From Kaistia sp. (GTDB taxonomy: Bacteria; Pseudomonadota; Alphaproteobacteria; Rhizobiales; Kaistiaceae), in NCBI GenBank assembly GCA_965227845.1, contig OZ245770.1, positions 2,715,017 to 2,779,016 of the forward strand: DNA of 64,000 bases, written 5' to 3'. The notes beneath the pieces were generated by a model that saw only the letters and a list, made by a program, of their open reading frames with translations, searched no databases and was not told where the DNA came from. A program made the position numbers and the translations under genes. Of this stretch, positions 2,237-56,181 are shown piece after piece (within the stretch, counting starts at the first letter, position 1; each line of letters opens with the position of its first letter).

Positions 2237-2249
2237 TGTCGAACCTGGT

Positions 2250-4625: not shown

Positions 4626-4662
4626 GGGGCGGACCGCGCCGGAGCGCGATCCGCCGGGATCA

Positions 4663-5754: not shown

Positions 5755-5995
5755 GGCGTGAGCTCCCTGAGGTTCGTGCTTATTGCCCCTAAGCGGCACC
5801 TTAGCCTTACGGCCTTAAGGGTGGTTGAATGATGTCGGATGCATTCGCCACATGGGTGACCCGCGCCGGGATGGCGCATCCAGGGTGCAAACCCGCTGAT
5901 TTCCGTGTCCGCCTGTGCTATGAGGCGGCCAACACCCTGATGCCGAACCGTTTGAGCGCACCCGCGCACCGGTCGGCCATAGACTGGATTTCGCC

Positions 5996-7222
5996 ATGAC
6001 CGCCCCGCTTGCCGCCGCGCCGGCCGAGACGCCCGTTCCCGCCTACATCCCGCGCGTCGTCGCCGAGACGCCCTCCCTGGTCGGCCTGTCGCGCGCCGGC
6101 ATCGGCGCGGAACTCGCTCGCATCGGCATCGAGCAAAAGCAGATCCGCATGCGCACGGCGCAGATCTGGAACTGGATCTATGCCCGCGGCGTGACCGACT
6201 TCGGCGACATGCTGAACGTCTCGAAGGATATGCGCGCGACGCTCGCTGCCGCCTTCACGCTCAAGCGGCCCGAGATCGTAACCGAGCAGATCTCCGAGGA
6301 CGGCACGCGCAAGTGGCTGATGCGCTTTCCCGCCCGCGGCGCCGGGCGGCCCGTCGAGATCGAGACCGTCTATATCCCGGAAATCGGCCGTGGCACGCTC
6401 TGCGTCTCCTCGCAGGTCGGCTGCACGCTGACCTGCTCGTTCTGCCATACCGGAACGCAGAAGCTGGTGCGCAATCTGACCGCCGAGGAGATCGTCGGCC
6501 AGATCCTCGTCGCGCGCGACCGTCTCGGCGATTTTCCCGACAAGGCGACGCCGGTCGGCGCCGCGGTTCCTTCCGAGGGACGCCTCGTCTCCAACATCGT
6601 CATGATGGGCATGGGCGAGCCGCTCTACAATTTCGACAATGTGAAGGAGGCGCTTCTCATCGCCTCCGATGGCGAGGGCCTGTCGCTGTCGAAGCGTCGC
6701 ATCACGCTGTCGACATCGGGCGTCGTGCCGGAAATCCCGCGCGCCGGCGCCGAGATCGGCTCGATGCTCGCCATCTCGCTGCATGCGGTGCGCGACGATC
6801 TCCGCGACATGCTGGTGCCGCTCAACCGGAAATATCCGATCGCCGAGCTGCTCGAAGCCTGCCGGAACTATCCCGGCCTCTCCAACGCCCGGCGCATCAC
6901 CTTCGAATATGTGATGCTGAAGGACGTCAACGACAGCCCGGCCGACGCGCGCGAACTGGTGCGGCTGCTGAAGGGCATCCCGGCCAAGATCAACCTGATC
7001 CCGTTCAATCCCTGGCCGGGGGTCAACTACCAGTGCTCCGACTGGGAGACGATCGAGGCGTTCTCCGACATCGTCAACCGCGCCGGCTATGCCTCGCCAA
7101 TCCGCACGCCGCGCGGCCGCGACATCCTCGCAGCCTGCGGCCAGCTGAAGAGCGAAAGCGAGCGCATGCGGGCGCGCGAGCGCCTGGCGCTCGAAGCGAT
7201 GATGGCCGACAGCGACGACTGA
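5996..7222 (+). CDS. rlmN: 23S rRNA m2A2503 / tRNA m2A37 radical-SAM methyltransferase
   Basis: [20 protein letters not shown] (CxxxCxxC), [22 protein letters not shown]. Confidence 0.96.
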
Positions 7223-7347
7223 CCCATCGTCGGTGGGCGTGCTCGCCCGGCGATCGTCGACATGGCAAATGTGATGCGTGTGCCATTGTCAGCAGCTAGC
7301 ATGCCCTCATCGACCAGCCGTTCTACGGCATGGGCAGGGAGAGGGAC

Positions 7348-9003: not shown

Positions 9004-9017
9004 GCGCGCCGTCGCGA

Positions 9018-9041
9018 ATGGGCCGGGTCGACCCGGCCCAT
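9018..9041. repeat. Perfect 24-bp palindrome just downstream of pgm
   Basis: atgggccgggtc|gacccggcccat. Confidence 0.75.
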
Positions 9042-9149
9042 CGCCCATCTTTGCTCTCCGTCAATCGGCGGTTGGCGATTCCCGCTAGGGTGCGCGCGAT
9101 CGGGCGGCCGAGGCCGGCTCCGATCGCGTCCGAGCTTTGCGAGGAATTC

Positions 9150-9221
9150 ATGCCGTTCGAGCAGCCGCCTTTCTTTGTGATCGCGGCCCGGCCTGGCGCG
9201 ACGGCGGAGGCACCGCGGTGA
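9150..9221 (+). CDS. Putative 23-aa Pro-rich leader peptide upstream of mgtA (MPFEQPPFFVIAARPGATAEAPR)
   Basis: GAGGA SD at 9141-9145, ATG at 9150, 5 Pro including a PP pair, stop TGA overlaps the mgtA start (GTGATG). Confidence 0.45.
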   Translation: MPFEQPPFFVIAARPGATAEAPR

Positions 9222-38542: not shown

Positions 38543-39745
38543 TCAGGCGATGCCGACGACGGCGCCGCGAGCCGGCGCGAAGCGATAGCCGTCTCGGCCG
38601 GCAGCCTTCGTCTCGTAGAGGGCCATATCGGCCCGGCGCATCGCGCTCTCGATCGGCTCGCTACGGTCGGTCATGGCGATGCCGAAACTCGCGGTGACGC
38701 GGTAATCCGCCGGCAGCAGCGGATAGGCCGTCATGGCGGCGAGCTCGCGGATGGCGTCGAGATAGACCCGCGCCGCCGCGATCGAGCATTCGGGCATCAG
38801 GACGCAGAATTCCTCGCCGCCGATGCGGCCGCAGACGCCGTTGCCCTGGGTCAGTTCGCCGAGGCTGGCGCCAAAGACGCGGATGACCTCGTCGCCGGCG
38901 GCATGGCCGAAGCGGTCGTTGATCGCCTTGAAGTGGTCGAGATCGCACATGATGAGGCTCGACGGCAGGCCTCGCGCCGTCGCCGCAAGCGCAGCCGCGG
39001 CCTCTTCCAGGAAGGCGGCGCGCGTCAGCGCCCCCGAGAGCGCATCGCGCTGCAACCGCCGCGCGGTATCCGCCATGACGGCACGGCCGACGACGAAGAG
39101 CAGCGACAGCCCGAGCAGGACCGAGAGGATGCCGCCGGCGGTCTGCGAAATCTGGGCATAAAGGGTGACGAGATAGTCACGGACATCGGGGCCGCTCTTC
39201 GAAGCCGCGCCGATCAGGAAGGCCTTGCCCAGGAAGTGGACTGCGCTGACGACAAGAACGAACCCGAGCGCGATATCGGGCGCGCGTCGGCGCGGCGCGG
39301 CCAGGACGAAGTAGGCCGCGATTCCGAGGATGATCGTGAATGGCACATGGTAGCACATGCCGAAAAGCAGCGCGCGCGGCAGGTCGAACAGAACGAAGGT
39401 GTTGATCGTCGCGGCCAGAACCCCGAAGGGGATCAGCCAGGCGATCGGCCGCTGCGGCCGATAATGCCGCGAGAGGCCCGCGGTGATCAGCGACACCGCC
39501 AGCAGCAGTGACGCGTAGGACATCGTCCAGACGAGGCGCGGCCAGGGAGCATCGAAGACATAGGCCAGACCCTCCGTAGCAACGGCGGCGGCCGCAGACA
39601 CGAAGCCAGCGGCACACCACCAGCCGAGACGGATTTCGCTCTTCCAGGTGAGCGCCAGAAAGGCGGCGGCAAAGCCGACGCCGATCATGAAATTCATCGC
39701 CAGGAGAAAAGCCGCACTGCCCATCAGTCCCCATCCGATCGACAT
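38543..39745 (-). CDS. Membrane-anchored diguanylate cyclase (GGDEF domain)
   Basis: Multi-TM N-terminus; DLDHFKAINDRFGHAAGD, RIGGEEF, VTASFG, ADMALY. Confidence 0.92.
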   Translation of the reverse strand: MSIGWGLMGSAAFLLAMNFMIGVGFAAAFLALTWKSEIRLGWWCAAGFVSAAAAVATEGLAYVFDAPWPRLVWTMSYASLLLAVSLITAGLSRHYRPQRPIAWLIPFGVLAATINTFVLFDLPRALLFGMCYHVPFTIILGIAAYFVLAAPRRRAPDIALGFVLVVSAVHFLGKAFLIGAASKSGPDVRDYLVTLYAQISQTAGGILSVLLGLSLLFVVGRAVMADTARRLQRDALSGALTRAAFLEEAAAALAATARGLPSSLIMCDLDHFKAINDRFGHAAGDEVIRVFGASLGELTQGNGVCGRIGGEEFCVLMPECSIAAARVYLDAIRELAAMTAYPLLPADYRVTASFGIAMTDRSEPIESAMRRADMALYETKAAGRDGYRFAPARGAVVGIA

Positions 39746-39832: not shown

Positions 39833-40570
39833 TCAGAGGCTGGCGAGAAAGAGGCGGATCAGCCGGACGCTCTCGGCACTGATGCCGGCGATGAGCCGCT
39901 CGCCCTTTTCGGCCGTCGCCGGCCGCGGATCGCCGAAGACGCCCGAATGGTTGAAGGTCGAAAGATCGAGCGGGACAGTGCCGAACAGTTCCGGGAAGAT
40001 CGGGTATTCGGGTGCAGCCTTGTCCGTCTGCACGAGCTCAGGCGCGAGCGCCAGCATCATCGAGGTCTCGACCTCGTCGGCATGATAGAAGGTCGGCGCG
40101 GCCGGCTGGCTGTCGCAGATCGCGGTCGCGATGCGCTCCATGCCGGGATAATCGAGATACATCACCGGAAAGCCGAGCTCCGTCTTCAAGAGCCGCGCGG
40201 CGAGCGCAATCGGCTCGCGATTGCCGAAATGGCCGTTGACGATGACCAGCGCGCGGACACCCATGCGGGCGAGGCCGCGACCAAGATCCACCAGCACGGC
40301 GCGCAGCGTATCGGGCGAAAGCGACAGCGTGCCGACGAAGCCCTCATTGTTCCAGGCATCGCCATAGGCGATGGGCGGCAAGAGCAGCGCATCGAGCGCC
40401 TCGGCGATCCGCCGCGCGACGCCATGGGCCATCACCGTATCGGTGGAGAGCGGCAGATGCGCGCCATGCTGTTCCTGCGCGCCGACCGCGAGCAGGGCGA
40501 CGGCCCCTTTCGCGATCGCGGCCTTCGCCTCCGGCGACGTCGCGGCGTGGAGATCGAGCATGGTTCTCAT
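39833..40570 (-). CDS. Creatininase (creatinine amidohydrolase) family protein
   Basis: GAQEQHGAHLPLSTD, VNGHFGN, HADEVETS, GVFGDP. Confidence 0.9.
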   Translation of the reverse strand: MRTMLDLHAATSPEAKAAIAKGAVALLAVGAQEQHGAHLPLSTDTVMAHGVARRIAEALDALLLPPIAYGDAWNNEGFVGTLSLSPDTLRAVLVDLGRGLARMGVRALVIVNGHFGNREPIALAARLLKTELGFPVMYLDYPGMERIATAICDSQPAAPTFYHADEVETSMMLALAPELVQTDKAAPEYPIFPELFGTVPLDLSTFNHSGVFGDPRPATAEKGERLIAGISAESVRLIRLFLASL

Positions 40571-41517
40571 TCCTTGTCCGGACGGCCACGCCGGAACGGG
40601 ACGCCGAGCGCAGCGGGCGCGCCGCTTCGGCCGACGAAGCCGGCGAGCACGATGATCGTCAATACATAAGGAAGCATCAGCAGAAACTGGAACGGCACGC
40701 CGGTCGGCAGGATCTGCGCCCGGAGCTGCAGCGCATCCGCTGCGCCGAAGAGGAGCGCGGCGAGCAGCACGCCGAAGGGATGGCGGCGGCCGAGGATGAG
40801 GATGGCGAGCGCGATGTAGCCGCGCCCAGCCGTCATGCCGTCGATGAACACACCGGTCGCCGACAGCGACAGGAATGCGCCGCCGAGCCCTGCGAGCCCG
40901 CCCGAGATGGCGATGGCGCGGAAGCGAATGCGCTCGACATCGAGGCCGAGCGTCTCGGCTGCGGCCGGATGCTCGCCGACGGCGCGGATATCGAGGCCGA
41001 AGCGGGTCTTCGCCATCAGGAACCAGGCGACGAGCACCAAAGCGAGCGCAACATAGGCGAGCGCGTCCTGGCGGAAGAGCAGCGGGCCGATCACCGGGAT
41101 ATCGCCGAGCGCGCCGAGATCGAGCGGCACGAACGCATCGACGCGCGGGCGATCCGTGCCGGTGCCGAAGGCGAGGCGATAGAAGAATGAGGTCACCCCG
41201 ACGGCCAAGAGGTTGATCGCGATGCCGACGACGACCTGGTTGGCGCCGAGCGTGATCGTGTAAAATCCGAGGACGAGGCCTGTGGCGATCCCGGCCGCGA
41301 TGGCAGCGACAACGCCGATCGCCAGATGGCCGCTGGCATAGGCGGCGGCGAAGCCGACAAAGGCGCCGACCAGCATCATGCCTTCAAGGCCGATATTGAG
41401 CACGCCCGACCGCTCGGCGAAGACGCCGCCGAGCGCCGCCAGCATGATCGGGATGGCGAGCCGCATCGAGGCCGACAGGAACCCGGCGAAGGTCGGATCG
41501 GTGAGGAGCGCGATCAC
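40567..41517 (-). CDS. ABC transporter permease (nucleoside/CUT2-type)
   Basis: AERSGVLNIGLEG, RAVGEHP, MTAGRGYIALA, LPYVLT. Confidence 0.92.
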   Translation of the reverse strand: MIALLTDPTFAGFLSASMRLAIPIMLAALGGVFAERSGVLNIGLEGMMLVGAFVGFAAAYASGHLAIGVVAAIAAGIATGLVLGFYTITLGANQVVVGIAINLLAVGVTSFFYRLAFGTGTDRPRVDAFVPLDLGALGDIPVIGPLLFRQDALAYVALALVLVAWFLMAKTRFGLDIRAVGEHPAAAETLGLDVERIRFRAIAISGGLAGLGGAFLSLSATGVFIDGMTAGRGYIALAILILGRRHPFGVLLAALLFGAADALQLRAQILPTGVPFQFLLMLPYVLTIIVLAGFVGRSGAPAALGVPFRRGRPDKE

Positions 41518-42596
41518 GGACGAACCCTCCGCCTGAAGATGCCGGAAAGGCGGTCCCGCAGCATCGGCAGGGCAGCACGGCCGATCAGGAACAGCACGAC
41601 GAGACCCTGGATGACCGTCGTCAGCGTCGAGGGCACGCCGGCTGCGGATTCCATCGTCGAGGCGCCGATCTGAAGCGCCGCGAACAGGAAGGCGCTGGCG
41701 AGAACGCCGAACGGATTGGTCTGGCCGAGCAGGGCGACGATGATCGCGGTGTAGCCGAAGCCGGGCGAGAGGTTTTCGATCATCCGCCGCTGGACGCCGG
41801 CGACCTCCGAGAAACCGGCAAGCCCGGCCAGCGCGCCGCAGACGAGGAAGCCGAACAGGATGGTGCGGCGGACATCGATGCCGGCATTTTCAGCCGCGCG
41901 CGGATTGAAGCCAACGACGCGCAGGCGGAAGCCATCGGTGCGCCGCCACAGGAAGAGATGCGCCAGCACGGCCGCGACGAGCACGATGAGGATGCCGGCG
42001 TGAAGGCGCGTTCCCGCGAGCAGAACCGGAAGGCGGCCATCCGTGGTCAGGCGAGCCGTCTGCGCCAGTGCCCCGTTCGGGTCCTTGAGCGGACCGTGCA
42101 GCAGGAACGAGACGAGATGGATCGCGACGTAATTGAGCATGATCGTCGTGATCAGCTCGTCGGCCCGAAAGCGAAGCTTGAGGACGGCGGCAAGGCCAGA
42201 CCACAGCGCTCCGGCCAGCGCCGCCGCGAGCGCCATCGCGGGCAGGAGCATGAAGGCAGGCAGCCCTGCGCCATAGACGCCGGTGGCGCCAGCAGCGACG
42301 CCGCCGAGGAACAACTGGCCCTCGGCGCCGACATTGAACACGCCGGCGCGGAAGGCGAGCGCGATACCGAGCCCGCAGAGCGCCAGCGGAACCGTGCGCA
42401 CCAGCGTTTCGGCGAGGCCGTTCTGCGAGCCGAGCGCCGCCTCGAACAGCGCGCCATAGGCGGTGAGCGGGTTGACGCCCACCGCCGCGATCAGGAGTGC
42501 GCCGACAAGGAAGGCGGCGGCAACAGACGCCAGGCTGCCGATCAGGCCGGGGGGAAGACGCAGGCGCGAGACGATCGGGGACGAGGGCGTGTTCAT
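41514..42596 (-). CDS. ABC transporter permease (nucleoside/CUT2-type)
   Basis: GVFNVGAEGQL, ELITTIMLNY, GFNPRAA, GFGYTAIIVALLG. Confidence 0.92.
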   Translation of the reverse strand: MNTPSSPIVSRLRLPPGLIGSLASVAAAFLVGALLIAAVGVNPLTAYGALFEAALGSQNGLAETLVRTVPLALCGLGIALAFRAGVFNVGAEGQLFLGGVAAGATGVYGAGLPAFMLLPAMALAAALAGALWSGLAAVLKLRFRADELITTIMLNYVAIHLVSFLLHGPLKDPNGALAQTARLTTDGRLPVLLAGTRLHAGILIVLVAAVLAHLFLWRRTDGFRLRVVGFNPRAAENAGIDVRRTILFGFLVCGALAGLAGFSEVAGVQRRMIENLSPGFGYTAIIVALLGQTNPFGVLASAFLFAALQIGASTMESAAGVPSTLTTVIQGLVVLFLIGRAALPMLRDRLSGIFRRRVRP

Positions 42597-44200
42597 GCCG
42601 CGCGCCCCGCCATCATCAGACCGAGCCGTTCCACGCTCACCTCGGCGCGGGCGACGACGCCGACCAGGCGGCCCTTGAACATCACGGCGACGCGGTCGGA
42701 CAGCGCCAGGATCTCGTCGAGTTCGGTCGAGACCAGCAGCACGCCGGCGCCGGCGGCGCGGCGGGCGAGCAATTGGCGATGCACGAAGGCGGTGGCGCCG
42801 ACATCGAGGCCACGGGCCGGCTGGACCGCGACGAGCAGGCGCGGATCGCGCGACAGCGCCCGGCCGAGCACCACCTTCTGCTGGTTGCCGCCGGAAAGCG
42901 TGCCGACGCTCTGCTCCGGCCCGCTGGCGCGGACGTCGAAGGCGGCCATCACGTCGCGGGCCAGCGCGGCGACCGCGCCACGGTCGAGCCAGCCGCCGCG
43001 GGAGAAGGGCGGCGCTCCGACACGCTCGAGCACGATGTTGTCGCGGATCGACATCGGCTCGACGAGCGCGGTGCGATGACGGTCCTCGGGAATATGCGCG
43101 AGGCCGAGTGCGATGCGGCGGGCGATGGGCGCCGCCGACACATCCTCGCCCGCCAGGTGGATCGTGCCGGCCGCGACCCGCGACAGGCCGACGACGGCCT
43201 CGGCGAGTTCCTGCTGGCCGTTGCCGTCGACGCCGGCGACGCCGACGATCTCGCCGGCACCGACCGCGAGGCTGACGCCGTCGACGCGGACGAGACCGCG
43301 CGCATCGCGGCAGACGAGATCGGATATCAGCAGGATGGGCGCCCGTGCCTCGGCGGTCGCCGGCTGTGCCGCCTCTTCGAGCCGCGGCAGCGCAACCTCG
43401 GCGCCGACCATCATCCGGGCGAGACCGCGGGCATCCGTTTCCGCCGTCACGGCGGTCGCGACGACCTTGCCCTGGCGCAGCACCGTGACCTTTTCGGTGA
43501 GCGCCATGACCTCGTTCAGCTTGTGGCTGATGAAGACGATCGCCGTGCCCTCGGCCGCGAGCGTCCGGAGGATGCGGAAGAGGCCCTCGGTCTCCTGCGG
43601 TGTCAGCACGGCCGTCGGCTCGTCGAGCACGAGGATGCGCGCGCCGCGATAGAGCGCCTTCAGGATCTCGACCCGCTGCTGGCCGGCGATCGAGAGGCTG
43701 TCGATGCGGGCCGAGGGATCGATGTCCAGGCTATAGGTCTCGGCGAGGGTCCGGACCCTCGCCGCGACGCTCTTCAGATCGGGGATGAAACGGCCGGTCG
43801 AGGCGAGGCCGAGGCAGACATTCTCGGCGACCGTCAGCGTCGGGACGAGCATGAAATGCTGGTGCACCATGCCGATGCCGAGCCGCATCGCCTCCTGCGC
43901 CGAACCGAGCCTCTCGACGCGGCCCGCGATGCGGATTTCCCCTGCCGCCGGCACGATGAGCCCGGCGAGGACCCGCATCAGCGTCGACTTGCCCGCGCCG
44001 TTCTCGCCGAGCAGCGCATGGATTTCGCCGGAGGCGACGGCGAGATCGACATCGTCATTGGCGAGGAACGTGCCAAAGGCGACGCGGATGCCGCGCATGT
44101 CGAGAAGGGGAAGAGGTTCGGTCATTGGCCGCGACCGAGGCGATGGGCCCTCGCCCCCCTTGTGGGGGAGCGATGGAGAGGGGCGAGCTGCGTCGGGCAT
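42593..44200 (-). CDS. ABC transporter ATP-binding protein, two NBDs (nucleoside/CUT2-type)
   Basis: GENGAGKST, LDEPTAVL, FISHKL, LSGGNQQK. Start is ATG 44125 (no SD) or ATG 44200 (GAAGGT SD). Confidence 0.93.
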   Translation of the reverse strand: MPDAARPSPSLPHKGGEGPSPRSRPMTEPLPLLDMRGIRVAFGTFLANDDVDLAVASGEIHALLGENGAGKSTLMRVLAGLIVPAAGEIRIAGRVERLGSAQEAMRLGIGMVHQHFMLVPTLTVAENVCLGLASTGRFIPDLKSVAARVRTLAETYSLDIDPSARIDSLSIAGQQRVEILKALYRGARILVLDEPTAVLTPQETEGLFRILRTLAAEGTAIVFISHKLNEVMALTEKVTVLRQGKVVATAVTAETDARGLARMMVGAEVALPRLEEAAQPATAEARAPILLISDLVCRDARGLVRVDGVSLAVGAGEIVGVAGVDGNGQQELAEAVVGLSRVAAGTIHLAGEDVSAAPIARRIALGLAHIPEDRHRTALVEPMSIRDNIVLERVGAPPFSRGGWLDRGAVAALARDVMAAFDVRASGPEQSVGTLSGGNQQKVVLGRALSRDPRLLVAVQPARGLDVGATAFVHRQLLARRAAGAGVLLVSTELDEILALSDRVAVMFKGRLVGVVARAEVSVERLGLMMAGRAA

Positions 44201-44275
44201 GCAAACGACCTTCGACGGCAGAGCGTCTTCAGGGACCGCCGCCTCGCTCGCCCTCCCCCGCTGCGCGGGAGAGGG
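44148..44275. repeat. Alphaproteobacterial REP/RIME-like element (two GC hairpins)
   Basis: tcgc-c-ccccc-ttgt-ggggg-a-gcga (44151-44173) and ccctc-c-cccgc-tgc-gcggg-a-gaggg (44251-44275); they resemble the CCCTCTCCC..GGGAGAGGG repeats common in Rhizobiales. Confidence 0.65.
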
Positions 44276-44288
44276 GAAGACGCTGCCC

Positions 44289-45269
44289 TCACTCCGCGTT
44301 CGACGTATCGAGCGGCACGGTGAAGGCGCCCGACTTGATCGCCTCGAACTTGGCCTGCACCGCCTTCAGCACCGCGGGCGGCACGCCGGCATCGAGGCCA
44401 TGGAAATCGGCGAGCTTCACCGAGCCCTCGGGAATGCCATAGGACCAGTTCTGGCTCTTCCAGCTCTTGTCCTCGACCGCCTTGGCGACTGCCGTCACCA
44501 GCGGGCCGAGATCCCAGGTGACCGAGGTCAGCACGACCTTGGGCCCGAGATGGTTCTGATCGGTCATGGCGCCGAGGGCGAAGACATTCTTGGCGATCGC
44601 AGCGTCGATGACGCCGACGCCCTGTGCCGAGAGCACGTCGGCGCCCTGCTCGACCTGCGCGATGGCGGCTTCCTTGGCCTTCGGCGGATCGAACCAGGAG
44701 CCGATGAAGGTGTGCAGCACCTTGGCGTCCGGCACCATCTCCTTCGCGCCCGCCTCATAGGCATGGAGATTGGCGAGCATGTTCGGCGCCGGCATGCCGC
44801 CGACCCAGCCGATGGTCTTGGTCTTCGAAGCGCCGGCGCCGAGCATGCCCGCGAGATAGGCACCCTGGTAGTCGGGGTTCGAATAGGTGCCGAGATTGGG
44901 CGCCAGTTCCTTGGCCGTGCCGGCCATGAACACCGTGTTCGGGAAATCCTCGGCGACGTTGTGCGCCGCATCGCCGAACGAGAAGGAATGGGCGAAGACG
45001 AGGCCGTAGCCGCGCGAGGCATAGTCGCGCAGGATGCGCTCTGCATCGGCGTCGGAGACGTTTTCCGAATAGGCGACTTCGACGCCGAGCGCCTTGGCGG
45101 CGGCCTCGAGACCGTTATAGCCGACCGAATTCCAGTCATTGTCGCTGATCGGGCCCGGCAGGACCATCGCGACCTTGAGGCCTTCGGCCTCGGCAAGGCC
45201 CGCGCCGCCGAGCGCCAGCGGCAGCAGCGCCAGCGCGAGTTTGAGACCCGTGCGCATCTTCTTGAACAT
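44289..45269 (-). CDS. BMP family ABC transporter substrate-binding protein (purine/nucleoside type)
   Basis: Signal peptide, PGPISDNDWN, GYLAGML, IGSWFDPPK, QGADV. Confidence 0.9.
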   Translation of the reverse strand: MFKKMRTGLKLALALLPLALGGAGLAEAEGLKVAMVLPGPISDNDWNSVGYNGLEAAAKALGVEVAYSENVSDADAERILRDYASRGYGLVFAHSFSFGDAAHNVAEDFPNTVFMAGTAKELAPNLGTYSNPDYQGAYLAGMLGAGASKTKTIGWVGGMPAPNMLANLHAYEAGAKEMVPDAKVLHTFIGSWFDPPKAKEAAIAQVEQGADVLSAQGVGVIDAAIAKNVFALGAMTDQNHLGPKVVLTSVTWDLGPLVTAVAKAVEDKSWKSQNWSYGIPEGSVKLADFHGLDAGVPPAVLKAVQAKFEAIKSGAFTVPLDTSNAE

Positions 45270-45391
45270 CGTCGTCCCCGCTCGTTCGAACCGTTTCAAC
45301 ACTGGTCTAGTCGAAGCGTGCATTTTCGCCAGCCCGAATTGCGTGCGCCGCACCACGAAATGTGCACATCAAATCGACTTTCGTGTGCGCA

Positions 45392-47272
45392 CTACCAGAC
45401 GATGGGATGCGTATCACCCGTCGCAACGTTGACGAAGCCCTCCGGCGCCAGTGGCGAGGGCGCGACGAGCACCCAGCGCCAGGGCGCGCAGGTGAGCGTC
45501 GCGAAGGAGAGACGCTCGGGAAAGCCCGGCCACCAGCGCGGCGAGAAGGTCGGCTCGTACATCCAGTCGATGCCCGCGCCCGCTGCATAGAGCGCCTGCA
45601 TCTCGGCATCGAGCTCTGCGGCAGGCCGCGCCGTCATCAGGCCGCCGACCTCGTAGAACACCCGCGCAATCACCTTGCCGCTGGAAACCAGCACCCAGCC
45701 GCCCTGCTGTTCGGCGAGCGCATTGGCAACCAGCGCCATCGCCGCGTCGGAAGAGCCGGTGACCCAGATATTGTGCTTGTCATGGCCGAGCGTCGCGCCG
45801 AGCGCCGTATCGGGCGTGCGCGGGCCGGTGCCGAGCCAGAACATCTTCGACACCTTCGCCTCGCCAGAAAAGCGGTCGACGATGGCGAATTTGGTGACGT
45901 TGCGGCTCGCGTCGCGCTGCACGGCGCCATCCTCGACCGGCAGTTCCATGGTGATGAAGTCGTCATGCCAATGGAACGGCCTGAGCAGCGCCGCCTTGGC
46001 GGTCGTCGCACCCGGCGTCGGCGCCGCGATCCTGAAATCAGCCGCCGTCACCGTGCGGCCGAGATTGACGGTGCGCGTCGCCCATTCGGGCCAGTCGATC
46101 TTCGGCAGCGGACCCTCATACTGCCCGGCATCGGCCGCAAGGCGTCCATCGGCGAAGACCTTGGCGATGCGGAGCGTCGCGACATCATCAAGTAGAACGA
46201 CATCGGCGAAGCGGCCCGGCGCGATCGAACCGACCCAGGGCGTCAACCGCATGTGGCGGGCCGGATTGATCGTGACGCACTGGATCGCGATCTCGGGCGG
46301 AAGGCCGCTTTCGATGGCGGTGCGGACATTGTGGTCGGTGGCGCCGATCTTCAGCGTATCCGAGGCGCTGCGATCGTCGGTGACGAAGGCGACCTGCGAC
46401 CAGTCGGAAAGGCCCTTGGCGATGAGGCCCTTGATGACGTCGCCAAGCGAATGCAGGCGCAGTTCGACGAAGAGGCCGTGCGTCAGCTTGTCCCAAACCT
46501 CCTCGACGAACCAGCCTTCGTGGTCGGAGGCCATGCCGGCGGCGGCGAAGGCGTTGATCGTGGCGAGATCGCGGAGACCGGCGGCATGGCCCTCGACGAC
46601 GCCGCGCTTCTCGAAGGTGGCGCGGATCATGCCCCAGAGCCGGTCATAGGACGGATTTTCCGGGTTCCAGACCGAGGGCCAGTCCATGACCTCGTCGAGC
46701 CCGGCGACCATCAGGCTGTCGGCCATGAACTGCTTCTGGTCGTCATAGCCGAACCAGCCGCCGCCCCATTCATAGGCGGTGGGCGGCACGGCGGAGCCGG
46801 GCAGCGGGAAGATCTTCATCGGCGAGCCGCGCCGGCGTGCCTCGAGCCAGAATTCGAGATTGCGGCCGCCATTCACGTTGGAGAATTCGTGGCTCGCCTC
46901 GCAGACCCAGGTGACCCCGTGCGGCATGACAAGCGCCGCCTCGTGTTCCGGCGTCAGATGCGAGCTCTCGATATGCTTGTGCGCCTCGCCGAAGCCGGGG
47001 ACGGCGGCGAGATCCGGCTCATGCAGCCGCTCGGCGGCCTCTCCGGTCCAAGAGCCGGCCGGGCCGACATAGGCGATGCGCCGGCCCTTGATGACGATCT
47101 CCTGATCGGGAAGCCAGGTCCGCGAATGCACGTCGAGCAAGCGCCCGACCCGGAGCACGCGGTCGGCCGGGCGCTTGCCGAGCGCGGTCAGCGTCAGGTC
47201 CTGGCGGATGGCGATCTCCTGCTCGGCCTCGATGAGGAGATCGTCGGGAAGCGGCGCAGCGGCATCGACCAT
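45392..47272 (-). CDS. Adenine deaminase (AdeC/COG1001) family protein, divergent
   Basis: PGFGEAHKHIESSHLTP, GLDEVM, EGHAAG, SDHEG, FVTDDR, TINPARH, GSIAPGRFAD, GHDKHNI. Confidence 0.85.
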   Translation of the reverse strand: MVDAAAPLPDDLLIEAEQEIAIRQDLTLTALGKRPADRVLRVGRLLDVHSRTWLPDQEIVIKGRRIAYVGPAGSWTGEAAERLHEPDLAAVPGFGEAHKHIESSHLTPEHEAALVMPHGVTWVCEASHEFSNVNGGRNLEFWLEARRRGSPMKIFPLPGSAVPPTAYEWGGGWFGYDDQKQFMADSLMVAGLDEVMDWPSVWNPENPSYDRLWGMIRATFEKRGVVEGHAAGLRDLATINAFAAAGMASDHEGWFVEEVWDKLTHGLFVELRLHSLGDVIKGLIAKGLSDWSQVAFVTDDRSASDTLKIGATDHNVRTAIESGLPPEIAIQCVTINPARHMRLTPWVGSIAPGRFADVVLLDDVATLRIAKVFADGRLAADAGQYEGPLPKIDWPEWATRTVNLGRTVTAADFRIAAPTPGATTAKAALLRPFHWHDDFITMELPVEDGAVQRDASRNVTKFAIVDRFSGEAKVSKMFWLGTGPRTPDTALGATLGHDKHNIWVTGSSDAAMALVANALAEQQGGWVLVSSGKVIARVFYEVGGLMTARPAAELDAEMQALYAAGAGIDWMYEPTFSPRWWPGFPERLSFATLTCAPWRWVLVAPSPLAPEGFVNVATGDTHPIVW

Positions 47273-47453
47273 GGGAACCTCGGCATTGGGGGTCCGGCAG
47301 AGGTAGAAGCGGGCGCGGCGGCTGTAAAGCGCCGCCCCGGGGTCCATGCGTGCCTCGCGGTGCACAGTCCGTTCGCAGCCCGGCCAGTATTCCCCAAGGC
47401 GCGGGCGGCCTATGGTCGAGACTTCCGAAACAGATCAGGGGCGGTGCCACGCC

Positions 47454-48422
47454 ATGCTCGTCGACGGCAAATGGTCCGCCAACTGGGACCCGGTTCAGGC
47501 CAAGGATGCCAAGGGCGGTTTCGTCCGCCAGATCTCATCTTTCCGCAACTTCGTCACGCCGGACGGTGGCGCCGGCCCGACCGGCAGCGGCGGCTTCAAG
47601 GCCGAGGCGGGCCGCTACCATCTCTATGTCGCGCTGATCTGTCCCTGGGCGTCGCGAACGCTGATCGCCCGCGCGGTGAAGCGGCTCGAAAACGTGATCG
47701 CCATCACCGTCGTCGAGCCCGCTTTGACCGAGGAAGGCTGGCGCTTCGGCGACGATGCCGATTGCCGGCCCGATCCGGTGGGCGGCGCGCGCTACATGCA
47801 TGAAATCTACACCAAGGCGGACCCGCATTTCACCGGCCGCGCCACGGTGCCCGTGCTCTACGACATCCAGCGGGACACGATCGTCAACAACGAATCGGCC
47901 GATATCGTCCGCATGCTGAATTCAGGATTCGGCAGCCTCGCCGAAGACAGCGTCGATCTCTATCCCGAGGCGCTCAGGCCCGAGATCGACGCGCTCAACG
48001 AGCGGATCTATCCGCGGCTCAACAACGGCGTCTACCGCGCCGGCTTCGCGACGACGCAGATCGCCTATGACGAGGCCTTTGCCGATGTGTTCGCGATGCT
48101 GGACGAACTCGAGAAGCGGCTCGACGGGCACAGCTTCCTGGTCGGGGAGCGCTTCACCGAGAGCGACATCCGCACCTTCGTGACGCTCGTCCGCTTCGAT
48201 GCCGCCTATAACGGCATCTTCAAGTGCAACCGCCGCCGCCTCGCCGACTATCCCCGGCTCTCGGCCTATCTGGAGCGTATCCTCGCCGTGCCCGGGGTCG
48301 CGGCCACGGTTTCGATCGACCACATCAAGCGCGGCTATTATTCCGTGAAGGCCCTCAACCCGAACGGTATCGTGCCGCTTGGGCCCGACCTTCCCTTCGC
48401 CTCGCTTCTGGTACGCGCCTGA
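47454..48422 (+). CDS. Glutathionyl-hydroquinone reductase (YqjG/ECM4 GST family)
   Basis: GRYHLYVALICPWASR, TGRATVPVLYD, NNESADI, NNGVYRAGFA, HIKRGYY. Confidence 0.92.
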   Translation: MLVDGKWSANWDPVQAKDAKGGFVRQISSFRNFVTPDGGAGPTGSGGFKAEAGRYHLYVALICPWASRTLIARAVKRLENVIAITVVEPALTEEGWRFGDDADCRPDPVGGARYMHEIYTKADPHFTGRATVPVLYDIQRDTIVNNESADIVRMLNSGFGSLAEDSVDLYPEALRPEIDALNERIYPRLNNGVYRAGFATTQIAYDEAFADVFAMLDELEKRLDGHSFLVGERFTESDIRTFVTLVRFDAAYNGIFKCNRRRLADYPRLSAYLERILAVPGVAATVSIDHIKRGYYSVKALNPNGIVPLGPDLPFASLLVRA

Positions 48423-48443: not shown

Positions 48444-49142
48444 TCATGCCATCTCGGCGAGCGCTTCCATCACCAGCGCGGCGGTGGGCGCGGCCGAGGC
48501 CGGATTCTGCCCGGTGATCAGCGCGCCGTCGCGGGTCGCGAACGGCGCGAAATCCGGTCCCGAGACGTGCAGGGCGCCGAGCTCGCGCAGCCGGCTTTCG
48601 AGCAGGAACGGCACTGCGCCGTCGAGCCCGACGGCGCGCTCCTCGCTGTCGGTGAAGGCGGCGAGCCGGCGCCCCTTCACCAGCGGCACGCCATGCTCGT
48701 CACGCGCGGCGACGAGGCCGGCCGGGCCGTGGCACACCGCCGCGACGATGGCGCCAGCGCCGAGCCGGCGCGCCACCAGATCGGCCAATGCGATGCTTTC
48801 AGGAAAATCGAACATCGTGCCGTGGCCGCCGGCAAGGAAGATCGCATCGAAGCCGCTGCCATCCAGCGTATCTAGGCGCGGTGTCGCCGCGGTCTTCTGC
48901 TTGAAGTCCTCGTCGCCAAACGACCGCTCGACCGACGGCTCGTTTTCGTAATCCGGCTTGAGGCTGCGCGGATCGACTGGAATGGCACCACCGGCGATCG
49001 ACGCGATCGTCACCTCGGCGCCGGCATCGCGGAAGGCATAGTAGGGCGTCGTCAGCTCTTCGAGCCAGAGGCCGGTCGGCTCGCCATTGTCCATCCGGGC
49101 GGCCGAGGTGGCGATGAGCAGGATCGTCTTCGGGCGGGTCAT
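48444..49142 (-). CDS. DJ-1/PfpI (type 1 GATase-like) protein, glyoxalase III-like
   Basis: TGLWLEELTTPY, GGHGTMFD, AVCHGP nucleophile, ITGQNPAS. Confidence 0.9.
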   Translation of the reverse strand: MTRPKTILLIATSAARMDNGEPTGLWLEELTTPYYAFRDAGAEVTIASIAGGAIPVDPRSLKPDYENEPSVERSFGDEDFKQKTAATPRLDTLDGSGFDAIFLAGGHGTMFDFPESIALADLVARRLGAGAIVAAVCHGPAGLVAARDEHGVPLVKGRRLAAFTDSEERAVGLDGAVPFLLESRLRELGALHVSGPDFAPFATRDGALITGQNPASAAPTAALVMEALAEMA

Positions 49143-49351: not shown

Positions 49352-49489
49352 ATGAAATCGCTTCCCTCGACCGCGGTCGTCGTCGCCATGCTGCTCGCCG
49401 CGACCCTCGCCGGCTGCGCCAACACGGTCCGCGGTGTCGCGACCGACGTCAAGCAGACCGGGAACGCCGTGGAGGATTCGGTCCGCTAG
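49352..49489 (+). CDS. Entericidin EcnA/B family lipoprotein (45 aa, absent from the ORF track)
   Basis: MKSLPSTAVVVAMLLAATLAGC-ANTVRGVATDVKQTGNAVEDSVR; lipobox LAGC; GGAGA SD. Confidence 0.85.
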   Translation: MKSLPSTAVVVAMLLAATLAGCANTVRGVATDVKQTGNAVEDSVR

Positions 49490-49520
49490 CACGCCCGAAG
49501 CGCTTGCTGTCGCGGACCCG

Positions 49521-50006
49521 ATGATGCTCGATCTCATCGAGGCGTCCTTTCTCGAGACCCATCTGCCGACAGGCCAGATCGCGTTGCGGCTCATCGCCGC
49601 CGCCCTGCTTGGCGCCGCGATCGGCGCTGAACGCGAATGGCGCTCGCGGCCGGCGGGTCTGCGGACGCACACGCTGACGGCGCTCGCCTCGGCGGTGTTC
49701 ACGATCGTGATGCTCGAGATCCTCCATTCCGATGCGCTCGGCATGGAGCATGTGGTCTTCGACCCAATCCGTATCATCGAGGCCGTGACCTCGGGCGTCG
49801 CCTTCCTCGCCGCTGGCGCCATCATCCAGAGCCGCGGCCGCGTGAAGGGACTGACGACGGGCGCCGCGATGTGGCTCGCCGGCGCGATCGGCGTTTCCTG
49901 CGGCCTCGGCTATGTCGCGGTCGGTATCATGGCGACGGTCATCTGCCTGTTCGTGATCATCGTTCTGTCGCTGGTCCAGGTGAAGGAGAGCGACGACCAC
50001 GATTGA
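49521..50006 (+). CDS. MgtC/SapB family membrane protein
   Basis: IGAERE, PAGLRTH, DPIRI, GVAFLAAGAI, GLTTGAAMW. Confidence 0.9.
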   Translation: MMLDLIEASFLETHLPTGQIALRLIAAALLGAAIGAEREWRSRPAGLRTHTLTALASAVFTIVMLEILHSDALGMEHVVFDPIRIIEAVTSGVAFLAAGAIIQSRGRVKGLTTGAAMWLAGAIGVSCGLGYVAVGIMATVICLFVIIVLSLVQVKESDDHD

Positions 50007-51058: not shown

Positions 51059-51718
51059 ATGATGATGATGCTCGCCATCGACACAGCGCTCGAAAACTGC
51101 GCCGTCGGACTTTCGCTCTCCGGCGAGCTACTGGTGCGGGTGCGCGTGATCGGCCGCGGCCATGCCGAAATCCTCATCGGCGAGATCGCGGCGCTGTTGA
51201 CCGAAGCCGGCGTCGGGGCCGACGCGCTGGAGCGGATCGCCGTCTCGGTCGGTCCAGGCTCGTTCACCGGCCTTCGCGTCGGCATCGCCGCGGCCCGTGG
51301 CCTGGCGCTCGTCCGGCGCATTCCCGTCGTCGGGATTTCGACACTCCATGCCCATGCCGCGCATGCGAGCGCGATCGGCAGCGGCGGCAGGCCGATCCTG
51401 GTGTTGCTGCCGGCGCGCGGCAGCGAGGCGTTCGGGCAGCTCTTCTCTGCCGAGGGCGAGCCGCTCGAGGCGGCCGTCGCGGCGCCGGTCGCGCTCTTGG
51501 CCGCGCGCGCCGAAGCCGAGGGGCTGGCCGTCGCCGGCGCCGGAGCGGCCCTTCTCGGCGCCGCGTTCACGCCGCTGCACCTCGACAGCGCGCCGCGGAT
51601 CGAGACGCTGCTGGCGCTCGGGGCCAGGCTCGATCCCGCCGACCATCCGCCGAAGCCGCTTTATGTGAAGCCGCCCGACGCCGTGCCTCAGGCTGGGGCG
51701 AGGATCGCGCGCCGATGA
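51059..51718 (+). CDS. tsaB: tRNA t6A biosynthesis protein TsaB
   Basis: LAIDTA, GHAE, VGPGSFTGLRVG, PLYVKPPDA. Confidence 0.93.
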   Translation: MMMMLAIDTALENCAVGLSLSGELLVRVRVIGRGHAEILIGEIAALLTEAGVGADALERIAVSVGPGSFTGLRVGIAAARGLALVRRIPVVGISTLHAHAAHASAIGSGGRPILVLLPARGSEAFGQLFSAEGEPLEAAVAAPVALLAARAEAEGLAVAGAGAALLGAAFTPLHLDSAPRIETLLALGARLDPADHPPKPLYVKPPDAVPQAGARIARR

Positions 51719-52215
51719 TCGAGACCATGTTCAATCTTTTCCCGCAGTCCCGCATGGTCATCGACGATGTGCGTGGCGAGACCGATGTCGAGGCGATGGT
51801 CGCCATCCATGGCGAGGGCTTCCACCGCGGCTGGGGCATCGACGAGTTCGAGACGCTGCTCGCCGAGCCGACGGTCCGTTGCCTGCTGCTGCGGCGGGAG
51901 ACGGTGTTCGGCACGCGCCGCGTGCTCGGCTTCATCATGACGCGACTCGTTGCCGGCGAGGCCGAGGTGCTGACGATCGCGGTCGCCGCGGCGCGGCGCG
52001 GACATGGCTATGGCCGCCGGCTCATCGACGAAGCGATCCGCCGCGCCTATGCCGAGGGCATCGGCGAGGTGTTCCTCGAGGTCAGCGACAGCAACCCGCC
52101 GGCGCTCGCGCTCTATCGCCGCATCGGCTTTCGCGAAGTCGGCCGCCGCAAGGGCTATTATGCCGAGGGCGGGCCCGGCGGTACTGCGCTTGTCATGCGG
52201 TTGCAACTTCGTTAA
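51715..52215 (+). CDS. rimI: Ribosomal protein S18 alanine N-acetyltransferase (GNAT)
   Basis: EAEVLTIAV, GHGYG, FLEV, GRRKGYY; follows tsaB. Confidence 0.85.
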   Translation: MIETMFNLFPQSRMVIDDVRGETDVEAMVAIHGEGFHRGWGIDEFETLLAEPTVRCLLLRRETVFGTRRVLGFIMTRLVAGEAEVLTIAVAAARRGHGYGRRLIDEAIRRAYAEGIGEVFLEVSDSNPPALALYRRIGFREVGRRKGYYAEGGPGGTALVMRLQLR

Positions 52216-52254
52216 GCGGCACAGAGCCGGGATCGTGCCTCCGGAGGATGCGGG

Positions 52255-52704
52255 ATGAGCCAGCCAGTCGTCGAAGAGAACCACACGCTCGAAATCGCCT
52301 GCGCCGCCAAGGGCATGCGCATGACCGACCAGCGCCGGACGATTGCCCGGGTTCTCGATGCCGCGACCGACCATCCCGACGTGGAGGAGGTCTATCGCCG
52401 CGCCTCTGCGATCGATCCACGCATCTCGATCTCCACCGTCTACCGGACGGTGAAGCTGTTCGAGGATGCCGGCATCATCGAGCGCCACGATTTTCGCGAC
52501 GGCCGCAGCCGCTATGAAACGGTGTCCGAGGAACATCACGATCATCTGATAGACTTGCGCTCGGGCGCGGTGATCGAGTTTCGCAGCGAGGAGATCGAGG
52601 CGCTGCAGGAGGTGATAGCCAAGCGGCTCGGCTATCGGCTGGTCGATCACCGGCTCGAACTCTATGCGGTGCCGATCGAAGCGAAGGACAAGGAACGGTC
52701 TTGA
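52255..52704 (+). CDS. fur: Fur family transcriptional regulator
   Basis: MRMTDQRR, DHPDVEEVY, ISTVYRT, HHDHLID, HRLELY. Confidence 0.9.
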   Translation: MSQPVVEENHTLEIACAAKGMRMTDQRRTIARVLDAATDHPDVEEVYRRASAIDPRISISTVYRTVKLFEDAGIIERHDFRDGRSRYETVSEEHHDHLIDLRSGAVIEFRSEEIEALQEVIAKRLGYRLVDHRLELYAVPIEAKDKERS

Positions 52705-52717
52705 AGGCTCTCACATC

Positions 52718-53554
52718 GTGAAGCTGTCGGTGCGTCTCGTGGTGCTCGTGCTCGTGCTCGCGCTGACGACGCTCCTGTTTCTGCCGTTCCAGCTTCTCGC
52801 CATGCGGTTCTTCCCACGCCGCGCCGGCATCCTGCCGATGGCCTGGCAGCGGGTCGCCGCCTTCATGCTCGGCCTCACGGTCCGCATCGAGGGAACGCCC
52901 ACCACGGCGCGGCCGCTGCTCATCGTTTCCAACCACGTGTCCTGGCTCGACATCGTGACGCTCGGCAGCCTGATGCCGGTTTCGTTCATCGCGAAGCGCG
53001 AGGTGTCCGAATGGCCGGTGGTCCGCCGGCTGGCCCGGCTGCAGAGAAGCGTCTTCATCGATCGGGCGCGGCGCACGGCGACCGCCGAAGCGGGCGAGGC
53101 GATCGCGACCCGGCTCGCCGGCGGCGATGCGCTGGTCCTGTTCGCCGAAGGAACGACCGGTGACGGCGTCTCGGTACTGCCGTTCCGCAGCGCGCTGGTC
53201 GGCGCCGCCGCCAAGGCGAGCAGCAGCGCAGCCGCGAACGACGATGGCAGCGCCCGCGCCGAGACGATCACGATCCAGCCGGTGGCGATCGTCTATACGG
53301 CGCTGCAGGGGCTGCCGATCGGCAGGCTGCGCATGACCGACGTCGCCTGGCATGGCGACATGGACCTCGCGCCGCATCTCTCCAACCTGGTCGCCACCGG
53401 GGCGATCGATGCCGTCGTCGCCTTCGGCACGCCGATGGAGCTCCGCGCCGGCGCCGACCGCAAGCAGGCGACCGCCGCCGCCGAGCGCGAGGTTCGCGCC
53501 ATGGTGCGCCGAATTCGCGCCGAAGGGCGGAAACCGAAGACCGCGGCGTCATAG
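52718..53554 (+). CDS. Lysophospholipid acyltransferase (PlsC family; position matches olsA of rhizobia)
   Basis: NHVSWLD (HxxxxD), FIAK, FIDR, FAEGT. Confidence 0.85.
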   Translation: MKLSVRLVVLVLVLALTTLLFLPFQLLAMRFFPRRAGILPMAWQRVAAFMLGLTVRIEGTPTTARPLLIVSNHVSWLDIVTLGSLMPVSFIAKREVSEWPVVRRLARLQRSVFIDRARRTATAEAGEAIATRLAGGDALVLFAEGTTGDGVSVLPFRSALVGAAAKASSSAAANDDGSARAETITIQPVAIVYTALQGLPIGRLRMTDVAWHGDMDLAPHLSNLVATGAIDAVVAFGTPMELRAGADRKQATAAAEREVRAMVRRIRAEGRKPKTAAS

Positions 53555-53605
53555 AGCGGCAGCCGCGCTTCTCAGAAGCGGCGAAAGAGGCTAGGAAGAA
53601 CGCTC

Positions 53606-55105
<1,500 letters not shown>

Positions 55106-55155
55106 CACCACGCTCGACGACGCCAGGCAGCCCGATTCCGGGCCGGGTTACCGAG

Positions 55156-56181
55156 ATGTCGCACGCCTCGGACCTTGCCCATGTCGTCGTCGGCTTCGAC
55201 GACAACCGCCTGGCCAGCGAGCTGTTTGGCCAGTTCGACCAGAACCTCGCCATCATCGAGAAGCGGCTCGGCATCGAAGCCGTGGCGCGCGGCAACCAGC
55301 TCTCGATCCGCGGCCGGCCCGAAGCCTGTGCGCAGGCGCGGCTCGCGCTCGACCTGCTCTATCTGCGGCTGCAGCAGGGCCACGAGATCGGCCCGGCCGA
55401 TGTCGAGGGCGCCGTGCGCATGGCCGAGACCGCCGACGAGCAGCTGACGCTGCCGAGCCTCGAGCCGAAGGGCCGGCTCGCCATGGCGCAGATCTCGACG
55501 CGGCGGCGCACGATCATGGCGCGCAACCCGGCGCAGGACGCCTATATACGCGCGATGGACCGCGCCGAGATGGTGTTCGGCATCGGCCCGGCGGGAACGG
55601 GAAAGACCTATCTCGCCGTCGCCTATGCCGCCGCTCTGATCGAGCGCGGCGACGTTTCACGGCTGATCCTGTCGCGGCCGGCGGTCGAGGCCGGCGAACG
55701 GCTTGGTTTCCTGCCCGGAGACATGAAGGAGAAGGTCGATCCCTATCTGCGCCCGCTCTATGACGCGCTCTACGACATGATGCCGCCCGACAAGGTCGAG
55801 CGCGGCCTCAGCTCCGGGATGATCGAGGTGGCGCCGCTCGCCTTCATGCGCGGCCGCACGCTCGCCAATGCCGTCGTCATCCTGGACGAGGCGCAGAACA
55901 CGACCTCTATGCAGATGAAGATGTTCCTGACCCGTCTCGGCGAGGGCTCGCGCATGATCATCACCGGCGATCCGACCCAGGTCGACCTGCCGCCTGGCCA
56001 GATCTCGGGTCTCGGCGAGGCGAGCGAATTGCTGCGCGACGTCCAGGGCATCGTGCAGATCCGCTTCACCGATGTCGATGTCGTCCGCCACCCGCTGGTC
56101 GGGCGGATCGTGCGCGCCTATGACGCCGCGCCGAAGCCGCTGCCGCAGCCGCGCCCGGCCCGCCACGGAGCCGGTGCTTGA
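55156..56181 (+). CDS. phoH: PhoH family ATPase (YbeZ)
   Basis: GPAGTGKTYLA, RPAVEAGERLGFLPG, AFMRGRTL, DEAQN, DVVRH. Confidence 0.93.
   Translation: MSHASDLAHVVVGFDDNRLASELFGQFDQNLAIIEKRLGIEAVARGNQLSIRGRPEACAQARLALDLLYLRLQQGHEIGPADVEGAVRMAETADEQLTLPSLEPKGRLAMAQISTRRRTIMARNPAQDAYIRAMDRAEMVFGIGPAGTGKTYLAVAYAAALIERGDVSRLILSRPAVEAGERLGFLPGDMKEKVDPYLRPLYDALYDMMPPDKVERGLSSGMIEVAPLAFMRGRTLANAVVILDEAQNTTSMQMKMFLTRLGEGSRMIITGDPTQVDLPPGQISGLGEASELLRDVQGIVQIRFTDVDVVRHPLVGRIVRAYDAAPKPLPQPRPARHGAGA

Follow-up and report, generated by a model that had tools for sequence, protein, structure and literature searches.

What is taken up and broken down by an operon that joins an adenine deaminase-like enzyme to a creatininase-like one? 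The question is raised by six open reading frames (ORFs) in the genome of a soil bacterium, a Kaistia-type alphaproteobacterium, within a stretch of 64,000 nucleotides with about 67% G+C that is referred to here as the window. The genes encode a COG1001 amidohydrolase, for which the label ADEL is used, a BMP-type ATP-binding cassette (ABC) importer and a creatininase-family metal hydrolase. Neither of the database labels for the two enzymes, “adenine deaminase” and “creatininase”, is likely to be right. The reading preferred here, to which we give a probability of about 55%, is that the operon would take up a planar, adenine-like nitrogen heterocycle other than adenine and break it down in a two-step hydrolysis.

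All six ORFs lie on the minus strand, from 47272 down to 39833, and form one operon, with overlaps of 4 nucleotides at the junctions among the last four genes. The ORF coordinates were checked and bear out the common orientation of the COG1001 gene, the importer and the creatininase-family gene that had been described in an earlier, sequence-only reading of this DNA. The family of every protein was confirmed by Pfam, and all NCBIfam scores are below the cut-off of the nearest curated model. In the direction of transcription, the parts are:

47273..47345, no strand: divergent intergenic region between ADEL and a YqjG-like glutathione transferase (GST) gene, presumed to hold the promoter and operator by position only
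45392..47272, minus: ADEL, a COG1001 amidohydrolase of 626 amino acids (Amidohydro_1 and Adenine_deam_C), assigned by Pfam, NCBIfam, alignment to 3nqb, tree and clade residues
44289..45272, minus: BMP-family periplasmic binding protein, purine-base type (PF02608; AtzT, 6pi5, and 3s99 are the nearest solved relatives)
42593..44200, minus: ABC ATPase with two fused nucleotide-binding domains (PF00005 in two stretches; nearest model NF047930, below its cut-off)
41514..42596, minus: ABC permease subunit (BPD_transp_2, by Pfam/NCBIfam), overlapping each neighbor by 4 nucleotides
40567..41517, minus: ABC permease subunit (BPD_transp_2, by Pfam/NCBIfam), overlapping each neighbor by 4 nucleotides
39833..40570, minus: creatininase-family metal hydrolase of 245 amino acids (PF02633, 222.5 bits over profile positions 3-238 of 238, above the gathering score)

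ADEL among the COG1001 enzymes

ADEL consists of an amidohydrolase barrel followed by an adenine deaminase C-terminal domain (PF01979, 53 bits, and PF13382, 94 bits, both above cut-off). It reaches 266.3 bits against TIGR01178, the adenine deaminase equivalog (EC 3.5.4.2), which has a cut-off of 472.5. The best solved match is Atu4426, adenine deaminase 2 of Agrobacterium tumefaciens (3nqb, 3t81, 3t8l; E value 5e-47), which shares the two-domain COG1001 architecture. Throughout the ADEL clade, the HxH pair (H98, H100), the bridging Glu (E194), two further His residues (H229, H251), the catalytic Glu (E252) and the Asp-Asp pair (D299-D300) are invariant, and they align to the ligands of Atu4426; the third-metal residues H128, E129, H497 and D498 are also kept. 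His94, Arg260 and Asp289 were named as adenine contacts of Atu4426 by a docking study (PMC12133300), and the equivalents of all three are found in ADEL. Since ligands, third-metal residues and adenine contacts are all preserved, ADEL should be an active metal-dependent hydrolase that works on an adenine-shaped ring, and it is probably a hydrolytic deaminase or dealkylaminase of an adenine-like base.

In a tree made with FastTree from an alignment of 144 COG1001 sequences, ADEL belongs to a separate clade, with 100% local support, in which the catalytic residues are conserved. About a dozen clade-invariant residues lie beside the ligands (E96, K99, H105, A126-S127, G159/A161, D193, W254, E270, K499, W503 and Y540-E541), at positions that differ from nearly all other COG1001 members. 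Residue counts compare 17 clade members with 115 others: E96 is found in 17 of 17, against D in 103 of 115; K99 takes the place of V, I, M or L, H105 that of M or L, and W254 that of T, V or I; and A231 stands where 64 of the 115 have P. The sequence-only reading had singled out the motifs EAHKHIESSHL, GHAAG and DHEGW as signs of a divergent enzyme with its metal ligands intact. The motifs are present, and most of them set the clade apart from the remaining adenine deaminases; the divergence with ligands kept has been upheld by the model score and the alignment to Atu4426. Despite the shared architecture and contacts, Atu4426 is only about 30% identical to ADEL, falls in a different clade and lacks the dozen or so substitutions that flank the active site.

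Residues 565-626 of ADEL align only to its closest relatives. When the 1.8 billion cluster representatives of a library clustered at 50% identity were searched, identities to ADEL dropped from 64% and 52% to 44% or less, with most full-length matches, and with them the main body of the family, at 30-37%. A relative of 927 amino acids (P0129), considered as a possible gene fusion, shows the amidohydrolase domain only. The clade itself is divided into two subclades, of which “b” holds the gene of the window and “a” holds a gene from an A. tumefaciens plasmid that comes after an NCS2 purine permease.

COG1001 is known to include enzymes with other specificities. Bh0637 and YerA (Bsu06560) are N6-methyladenine/N6-methyladenosine deaminases of COG1001 subgroup 2 (PMC13296781, PMC12133300, PMC8643624), as the sequence-only reading had stated for Bh0637, and they demonstrate that a modified adenine can be the favored substrate in this group, with an amine given off instead of ammonia. 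ADEL does not look like a member of their subgroup. The C-terminal domain of YerA (9jql) gave no match to ADEL at an E value of 1e-3 or better, although it matches both other COG1001 paralogs of Kaistia, and YerA lacks the third-metal residues (PMC12133300) that ADEL keeps.

These two paralogs bear directly on the question of redundancy. One of them is a canonical adenine deaminase that scores 596.4 bits to TIGR01178, above the cut-off. Among 401 genomes drawn evenly from the order, ADEL was found in 22, all of which hold at least one further COG1001 gene, either canonical or matching at an E value of about 1e-100 to 1e-108, as given by the Atu4426 ortholog. In Ensifer and in an unclassified Rhizobiales isolate, ADEL directly follows an Atu4426-type gene in one operon; the Ensifer copy of the latter scores 906 bits to 3nqb, and the two are separate, adjoining genes. 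A Faunimonas-type genome (G388, contig 13; L151, 8745-16700) goes further, with three COG1001 genes from three different clades at one locus: an Atu4426-like gene is divergent from an operon that consists of an NCS2 permease, ADEL-a, a creatininase-like gene and ADEL-b. It is unlikely that three paralogs at one locus share one activity, and ADEL is probably not the adenine deaminase of the cell. Of all the forms of the pathway, the Faunimonas operon may be the most compact.

The third Kaistia paralog (G000:C1:2840164-2841849, at L092:7964-9871) scores 334 bits to TIGR01178. Its gene has a GST-family gene directly in front of it and an aldo-keto reductase gene behind it, so that both non-canonical COG1001 genes of Kaistia have a GST neighbor. 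As a guide to function, these neighbors were uninformative.

The creatininase-family partner and the importer

The best solved match of the creatininase-family protein is the creatininase (creatinine amidohydrolase) of Pseudomonas putida (1j2t, 3a6d; E value 9e-26). They have in common the PF02633 fold and six residues of the Pseudomonas enzyme, Glu34, His36, Asp45, His120, His178 and Glu183, whose equivalents are kept in the alignment. The alignment to 3a6h, on the other hand, shows Gly in the place of Glu122, Tyr-Pro in that of Trp154-Asp155, and deletions of Trp174 and of the Ser78 loop. We take Glu122 to be a ligand of the second metal and the Ser78 loop, Trp154 and Trp174 to be contacts for creatinine. 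The score against TIGR04448 (creatininase, EC 3.5.2.10) is 142 bits, under the cut-off of 235. Judged from these features, the protein is not a creatininase, and the view of the sequence-only reading that the second enzyme is something other than a plain creatininase has held up.

The scores against two other named members of the family are also below their cut-offs. The score against TIGR03964 (the mycofactocin peptidase MftE) is 136.2 bits, under 172, in a comparison in which the other mycofactocin genes were not searched for. ArfB, the archaeal formamidopyrimidine nucleotide deformylase, does belong to the creatininase family, as had been stated in the sequence-only reading and as the description of NF033501 lists it. 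It demonstrates that the family can hydrolyze a formamide on an aminopyrimidine ring, an activity that would suit an enzyme working beside a purine-ring hydrolase. However, ArfB and the protein of the window are not orthologous (21.2 bits, against a cut-off of 180), and the substrate of ArfB is a nucleotide in the biosynthesis of riboflavin and F420.

This gene is closely linked to ADEL. Orthologs with an identity of 62% or more were found in 10 of the 401 genomes, and all ten carry ADEL, within 5.6 kb. These genomes are related and represent five genera in four families rather than ten independent cases. In three genera other than Kaistia the two genes are directly adjacent, and in a fourth there is one gene between them. 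Since the gene order in Kaistia differs from that in the others, the linkage, which spans all five genera, has been kept through rearrangement. The protein is probably an amide hydrolase, for a lactam, formamide or ureido bond, that would work together with ADEL.

The nearest paralogs within the creatininase family, 41-44% identical, are found in a conserved sugar-type cluster (L169 in genome G253, 2138-10209; also L167 and L168) with a SorC-type regulator, a sugar ABC binding protein, an SDR, an FGGY kinase and a second creatininase-family gene. This cluster may represent another uncharacterized use of the family. Transfer of function from these paralogs was dropped, as the sugar clusters say nothing about function here.

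The importer had been described as a nucleoside importer, which its closest structures do not support. The nearest solved relatives of the BMP protein are AtzT of Pseudomonas sp. ADP (6pi5, E value 8e-54) and a Brucella protein (3s99, 3e-45), which places it in the branch that binds purine bases, whereas the nucleoside binders of the PnrA/TmpC/BmpD type (TmpC, 1.8e-8; BmpD, 3.3e-14) are far weaker matches. AtzT was crystallized with guanine, and 3s99 was modeled with adenine (PMC6834077). The protein of the window shares with them a stacking pair, Tyr45/Trp194 in AtzT and Trp/Trp here, as well as Ser97-Phe98. The hydrogen-bonding set of AtzT, Glu165/Asn218/Asn220, is changed: Glu165 corresponds to Asn, Asn218 is deleted and Asn220 corresponds to Gln. 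The changed pocket is invariant in all the ADEL-linked orthologs examined, from Kaistia, a Mesorhizobium and the plasmids of Agrobacterium vitis and Rhizobium ruizarguesonis, where the BMP copies are 69-70% identical to the protein of the window. By its sequence, then, the BMP protein is of the purine-base type with an altered pocket, and the invariance of that alteration in ADEL-linked orthologs suggests a planar, heterocyclic ligand whose hydrogen bonds would follow another pattern than those of adenine or guanine. The signal peptide of the protein has no lipobox Cys, and there is an alternative GTG start at 45356. Orthologs of the ATPase, 58-62% identical, come after ADEL on the A. vitis and R. 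ruizarguesonis plasmids.

Conserved neighborhoods and the likely substrate

Relatives of ADEL were confirmed at 329 places by a pattern scan of a one-genome-per-species collection, and 80 of these loci were examined. ORFs at neighboring loci were filtered by the GC content of the third codon position, since the choice of the longest ORF picks antisense frames in high-GC DNA. The loci are mostly from soil- and plant-associated Alphaproteobacteria, such as Rhizobium, Neorhizobium, Ensifer, Devosia and Microvirga, and also from Agrobacterium plasmids. Those relatives that have been named are all annotated as “adenine deaminase” or generically. The module is part of the core genome in Kaistia and is conserved at 70-90% across many genera.

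ADEL-b is always located beside an importer, but its other partners vary. The arrangement of the window is found in Kaistia, in a metagenome-assembled genome labelled Bosea sp. and in a Mesorhizobium. Loci of the Devosia type have two sets of genes opposite each other: one runs from a cytidine-deaminase-like gene through the creatininase-like gene, ADEL and a LacI regulator to a GATase1-like gene, and the other comprises a COG0402 enzyme, a nucleoside hydrolase and an importer of the nucleoside-type BMP kind. In Rhizobium, Neorhizobium and Microvirga, a PotD-like ABC importer is accompanied by M20 hydrolases, a COG0402 enzyme and a nucleoside hydrolase in various combinations. Plasmids of A. 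vitis, Martelella and R. ruizarguesonis group ADEL with a nitrilase-type carbamoylase, an XRE regulator and an alanine-racemase-fold aldolase-like gene, and in A. vitis and R. ruizarguesonis the genes of the orthologous BMP importer and of a TatD hydrolase come next. What recurs is the combination of an importer and ADEL with a single amide hydrolase, whose fold varies; enzymes for adenosine analogues are often nearby. The COG0402 partners are nearest to deaminases of methylthioadenosine, S-adenosylhomocysteine and 5'-deoxyadenosine (4f0r, 4gbd/4dyk) and, like the NCS2 permease and the nucleoside hydrolases, point to purine or adenosine-analogue chemistry. Rhizobium neighbors c16, c18 and c23 turned out to be unrelated genes for glycerate kinase and subunits of a cbb3 oxidase.

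The module of the A. vitis plasmid pAvCG78a (L096, 3254-21912) looks mobile, since transposase genes (IS66, IS3 and DDE) lie on either side of it. The copy on R. ruizarguesonis plasmid pRlX2 (L100), at 72% identity, has clearly diverged further than the one on the chromosome of a second strain of the species (82%).

In the preferred reading, the periplasmic BMP protein would capture the free base in an aromatic sandwich, as in its guanine- and adenine-binding relatives, with different hydrogen-bonding residues, and the ABC permeases and ATPase would import it. At the binuclear metal center of ADEL, a hydroxide would attack the amidine carbon and expel ammonia or a substituted amine. The creatininase-like enzyme would then hydrolyze an associated amide bond (lactam, formamide or ureido) in the product or leaving group of ADEL, or would act before it, on a precursor that yields the ADEL substrate. 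The type of reaction, the order of the steps and a substrate other than adenine are what we infer from the evidence above. The superfamilies and the importer type are all known ones; the subfamilies are uncharacterized and probably have a new specificity. No paper on the ADEL clade or on this combination of genes was found in literature searches, and a paper on an N2,N2-dimethylguanine hydrolase does not discuss gene neighborhoods.

The broader idea of the sequence-only reading, a pathway for a non-standard purine or nucleoside, has thus come through in part. A non-standard purine is favored by the distinct clade, by the constant presence of ADEL in addition to a standard adenine deaminase, by the linkage of the two enzyme genes and by the purine-related partners; the importer is not of the nucleoside type, and ADEL is not close to Bh0637 or YerA.

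A number of points weigh against a substrate other than adenine. The conserved adenine-contact residues suit adenine as well as any analogue, and they were mapped from a sequence alignment and published docking, not from a ligand-bound structure. Clusters in which a nucleoside importer, a nucleoside hydrolase and an adenosine-type deaminase accompany ADEL make good sense as plain catabolism of adenosine and adenine. The sister subclade is paired with an NCS2 purine permease, an arrangement that resembles the pair of adenine permease and adenine deaminase in Escherichia coli. It also happens in bacteria that paralogous isozymes share one activity. The hydrolase partner, finally, can be creatininase-like, M20, nitrilase-type or TatD, so that its step may be peripheral.

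Such points are accommodated if ADEL is an ordinary isozyme of adenine deaminase that allows adenine or adenine nucleosides from outside the cell to be used as a nitrogen source, with the importer bringing in adenine and the creatininase-like enzyme responsible for a side or clean-up reaction. We regard this as unlikely, but by no means negligible. It fits the retention of all catalytic and proposed adenine-contact residues (PMC12133300), the binding of adenine or guanine by the nearest solved binding proteins (PMC6834077), the nucleoside hydrolase and adenosine-type deaminases of the Devosia- and Microvirga-type clusters and the position of the sister-clade gene after the NCS2 permease. It does not explain why ADEL is so constantly redundant, why the pockets are altered or why the creatininase-like gene is linked. 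Every sampled genome with ADEL already has an adenine deaminase of the canonical or Atu4426 type, in Ensifer even in the same operon; around the active site there are about a dozen invariant substitutions; the BMP pocket is without the Glu and Asn that bind guanine in AtzT; and an isozyme gives no role to a creatininase-like gene whose orthologs occur only with ADEL.

A bolder and rather improbable proposal is that the ADEL-type and creatininase-like enzymes make up an undescribed, purely hydrolytic route for a purine beyond the reach of the standard enzymes, with the Faunimonas operon as its minimal form. Two examples would suit the sets of genes. ADEL might convert an N6-carbamoyl adenine derived from tRNA, such as the t6A base, to hypoxanthine and an N-carbamoyl amino acid, which the creatininase-like, M20 or nitrilase-type partner would cleave. 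Alternatively, a non-oxidative opening of the purine ring might yield a formamido-imidazole that is then deformylated. The t6A base, other N6-substituted adenines, formamidopyrimidine (FAPy)-type bases and ring opening with deformylation are guesses at candidate substrates and reactions.

Outside the purines, the substrate might be a cyclic guanidine resembling iminohydantoin or creatinine, from which ADEL would remove the imino group before the creatininase-like enzyme (elsewhere TatD) opens the hydantoin ring and a carbamoylase finishes the degradation. The creatininase family does hydrolyze a cyclic amide of this type. The plasmid copies of ADEL in A. vitis, Martelella and R. ruizarguesonis have the nitrilase-type N-carbamoyl-amino-acid hydrolase on one side and the aldolase-like gene on the other, and in the first and last of these the module ends with the TatD hydrolase, a set that resembles a hydantoinase pathway. 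Nevertheless, this substrate is distinctly improbable: the NCS2 permease, nucleoside hydrolases and adenosine-type deaminases elsewhere indicate purines, the binding protein is of the purine type, the Kaistia operon has no carbamoylase, and the residues proposed to hold the adenine ring are kept in ADEL. It is scarcely credible that ADEL is a triazine deaminase in a module for amino-s-triazines such as ammeline and melamine, as in the atrazine pathway, even though AtzT binds ammeline (0.36 uM) and 2-hydroxyatrazine (2.2 uM), for AtzT is regarded as a recruited purine binder (PMC6834077), hydrolases for cyanuric acid, biuret or allophanate are absent among the genes read at these loci, and a widely conserved core-genome module suits a natural substrate better than a xenobiotic.

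If the label “adenine deaminase” is wrong, the reconstructions of purine metabolism in these organisms share one systematic error. The module would provide a first function for a large COG1001 subgroup and for a subgroup of the creatininase family, and would name a new ligand for a purine-type BMP importer. Few catabolic enzymes are known for modified or damaged purines, and the module may also reveal a way in which bacteria of the soil recycle them.

Operon boundaries and flanking genes

The longest ORF for ADEL begins at 47365, but the ATG at 47272 was chosen as the start, with a GAGG sequence 7 nucleotides upstream. The intergenic region between ADEL and the GST gene may reach 47411 or 47453 if the latter starts at a later ATG. 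A consensus scan of the region found no consensus sigma-70 promoter, and an Rfam scan found no element, with two matches only, at chance level. No consensus terminator was detected, and terminator-like sites are fewer than in shuffled sequence. The sequence-only reading had stated that there is no regulator. This is true of the operon in Kaistia, which has no regulator gene within it, but it does not extend to other genomes, where XRE, LacI or AraC regulators flank the module.

Downstream, after a gap of 87 nucleotides, a gene for a GGDEF diguanylate cyclase (38543-39745) follows on the same, minus strand. Of the eight loci with the same operon as the window, four have retained this gene, with identities of 55-68%, and there is no consensus terminator between it and the operon.

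On the other side, a housekeeping block on the plus strand (51059-56181) contains tsaB (t6A synthesis), a rimI-like GNAT gene, fur, an acyltransferase gene, miaB (ms2i6A synthesis) and phoH. With tsaB and miaB, two genes for the N6 modification of adenosine in tRNA, 4-9 kb upstream of an operon that may degrade modified adenines, a link to tRNA modification was considered and dropped: the adjacency is seen in Kaistia only, and since the ADEL loci of other genera show no counterparts of the upstream genes of the window, the proximity is probably a coincidence. Between this block and the GST gene are a DJ-1/PfpI-family gene (48444-49142, minus) and an MgtC-family gene (49434-50006, plus). The GST gene itself (47346-48422, plus), divergent from ADEL, encodes a xi-class (YqjG-like) glutathione transferase. 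As the GST domains start only at about residue 98, an in-frame ATG at about 47412 or 47454 may be the true start. The gene is found beside ADEL in several Kaistia-type genomes only.

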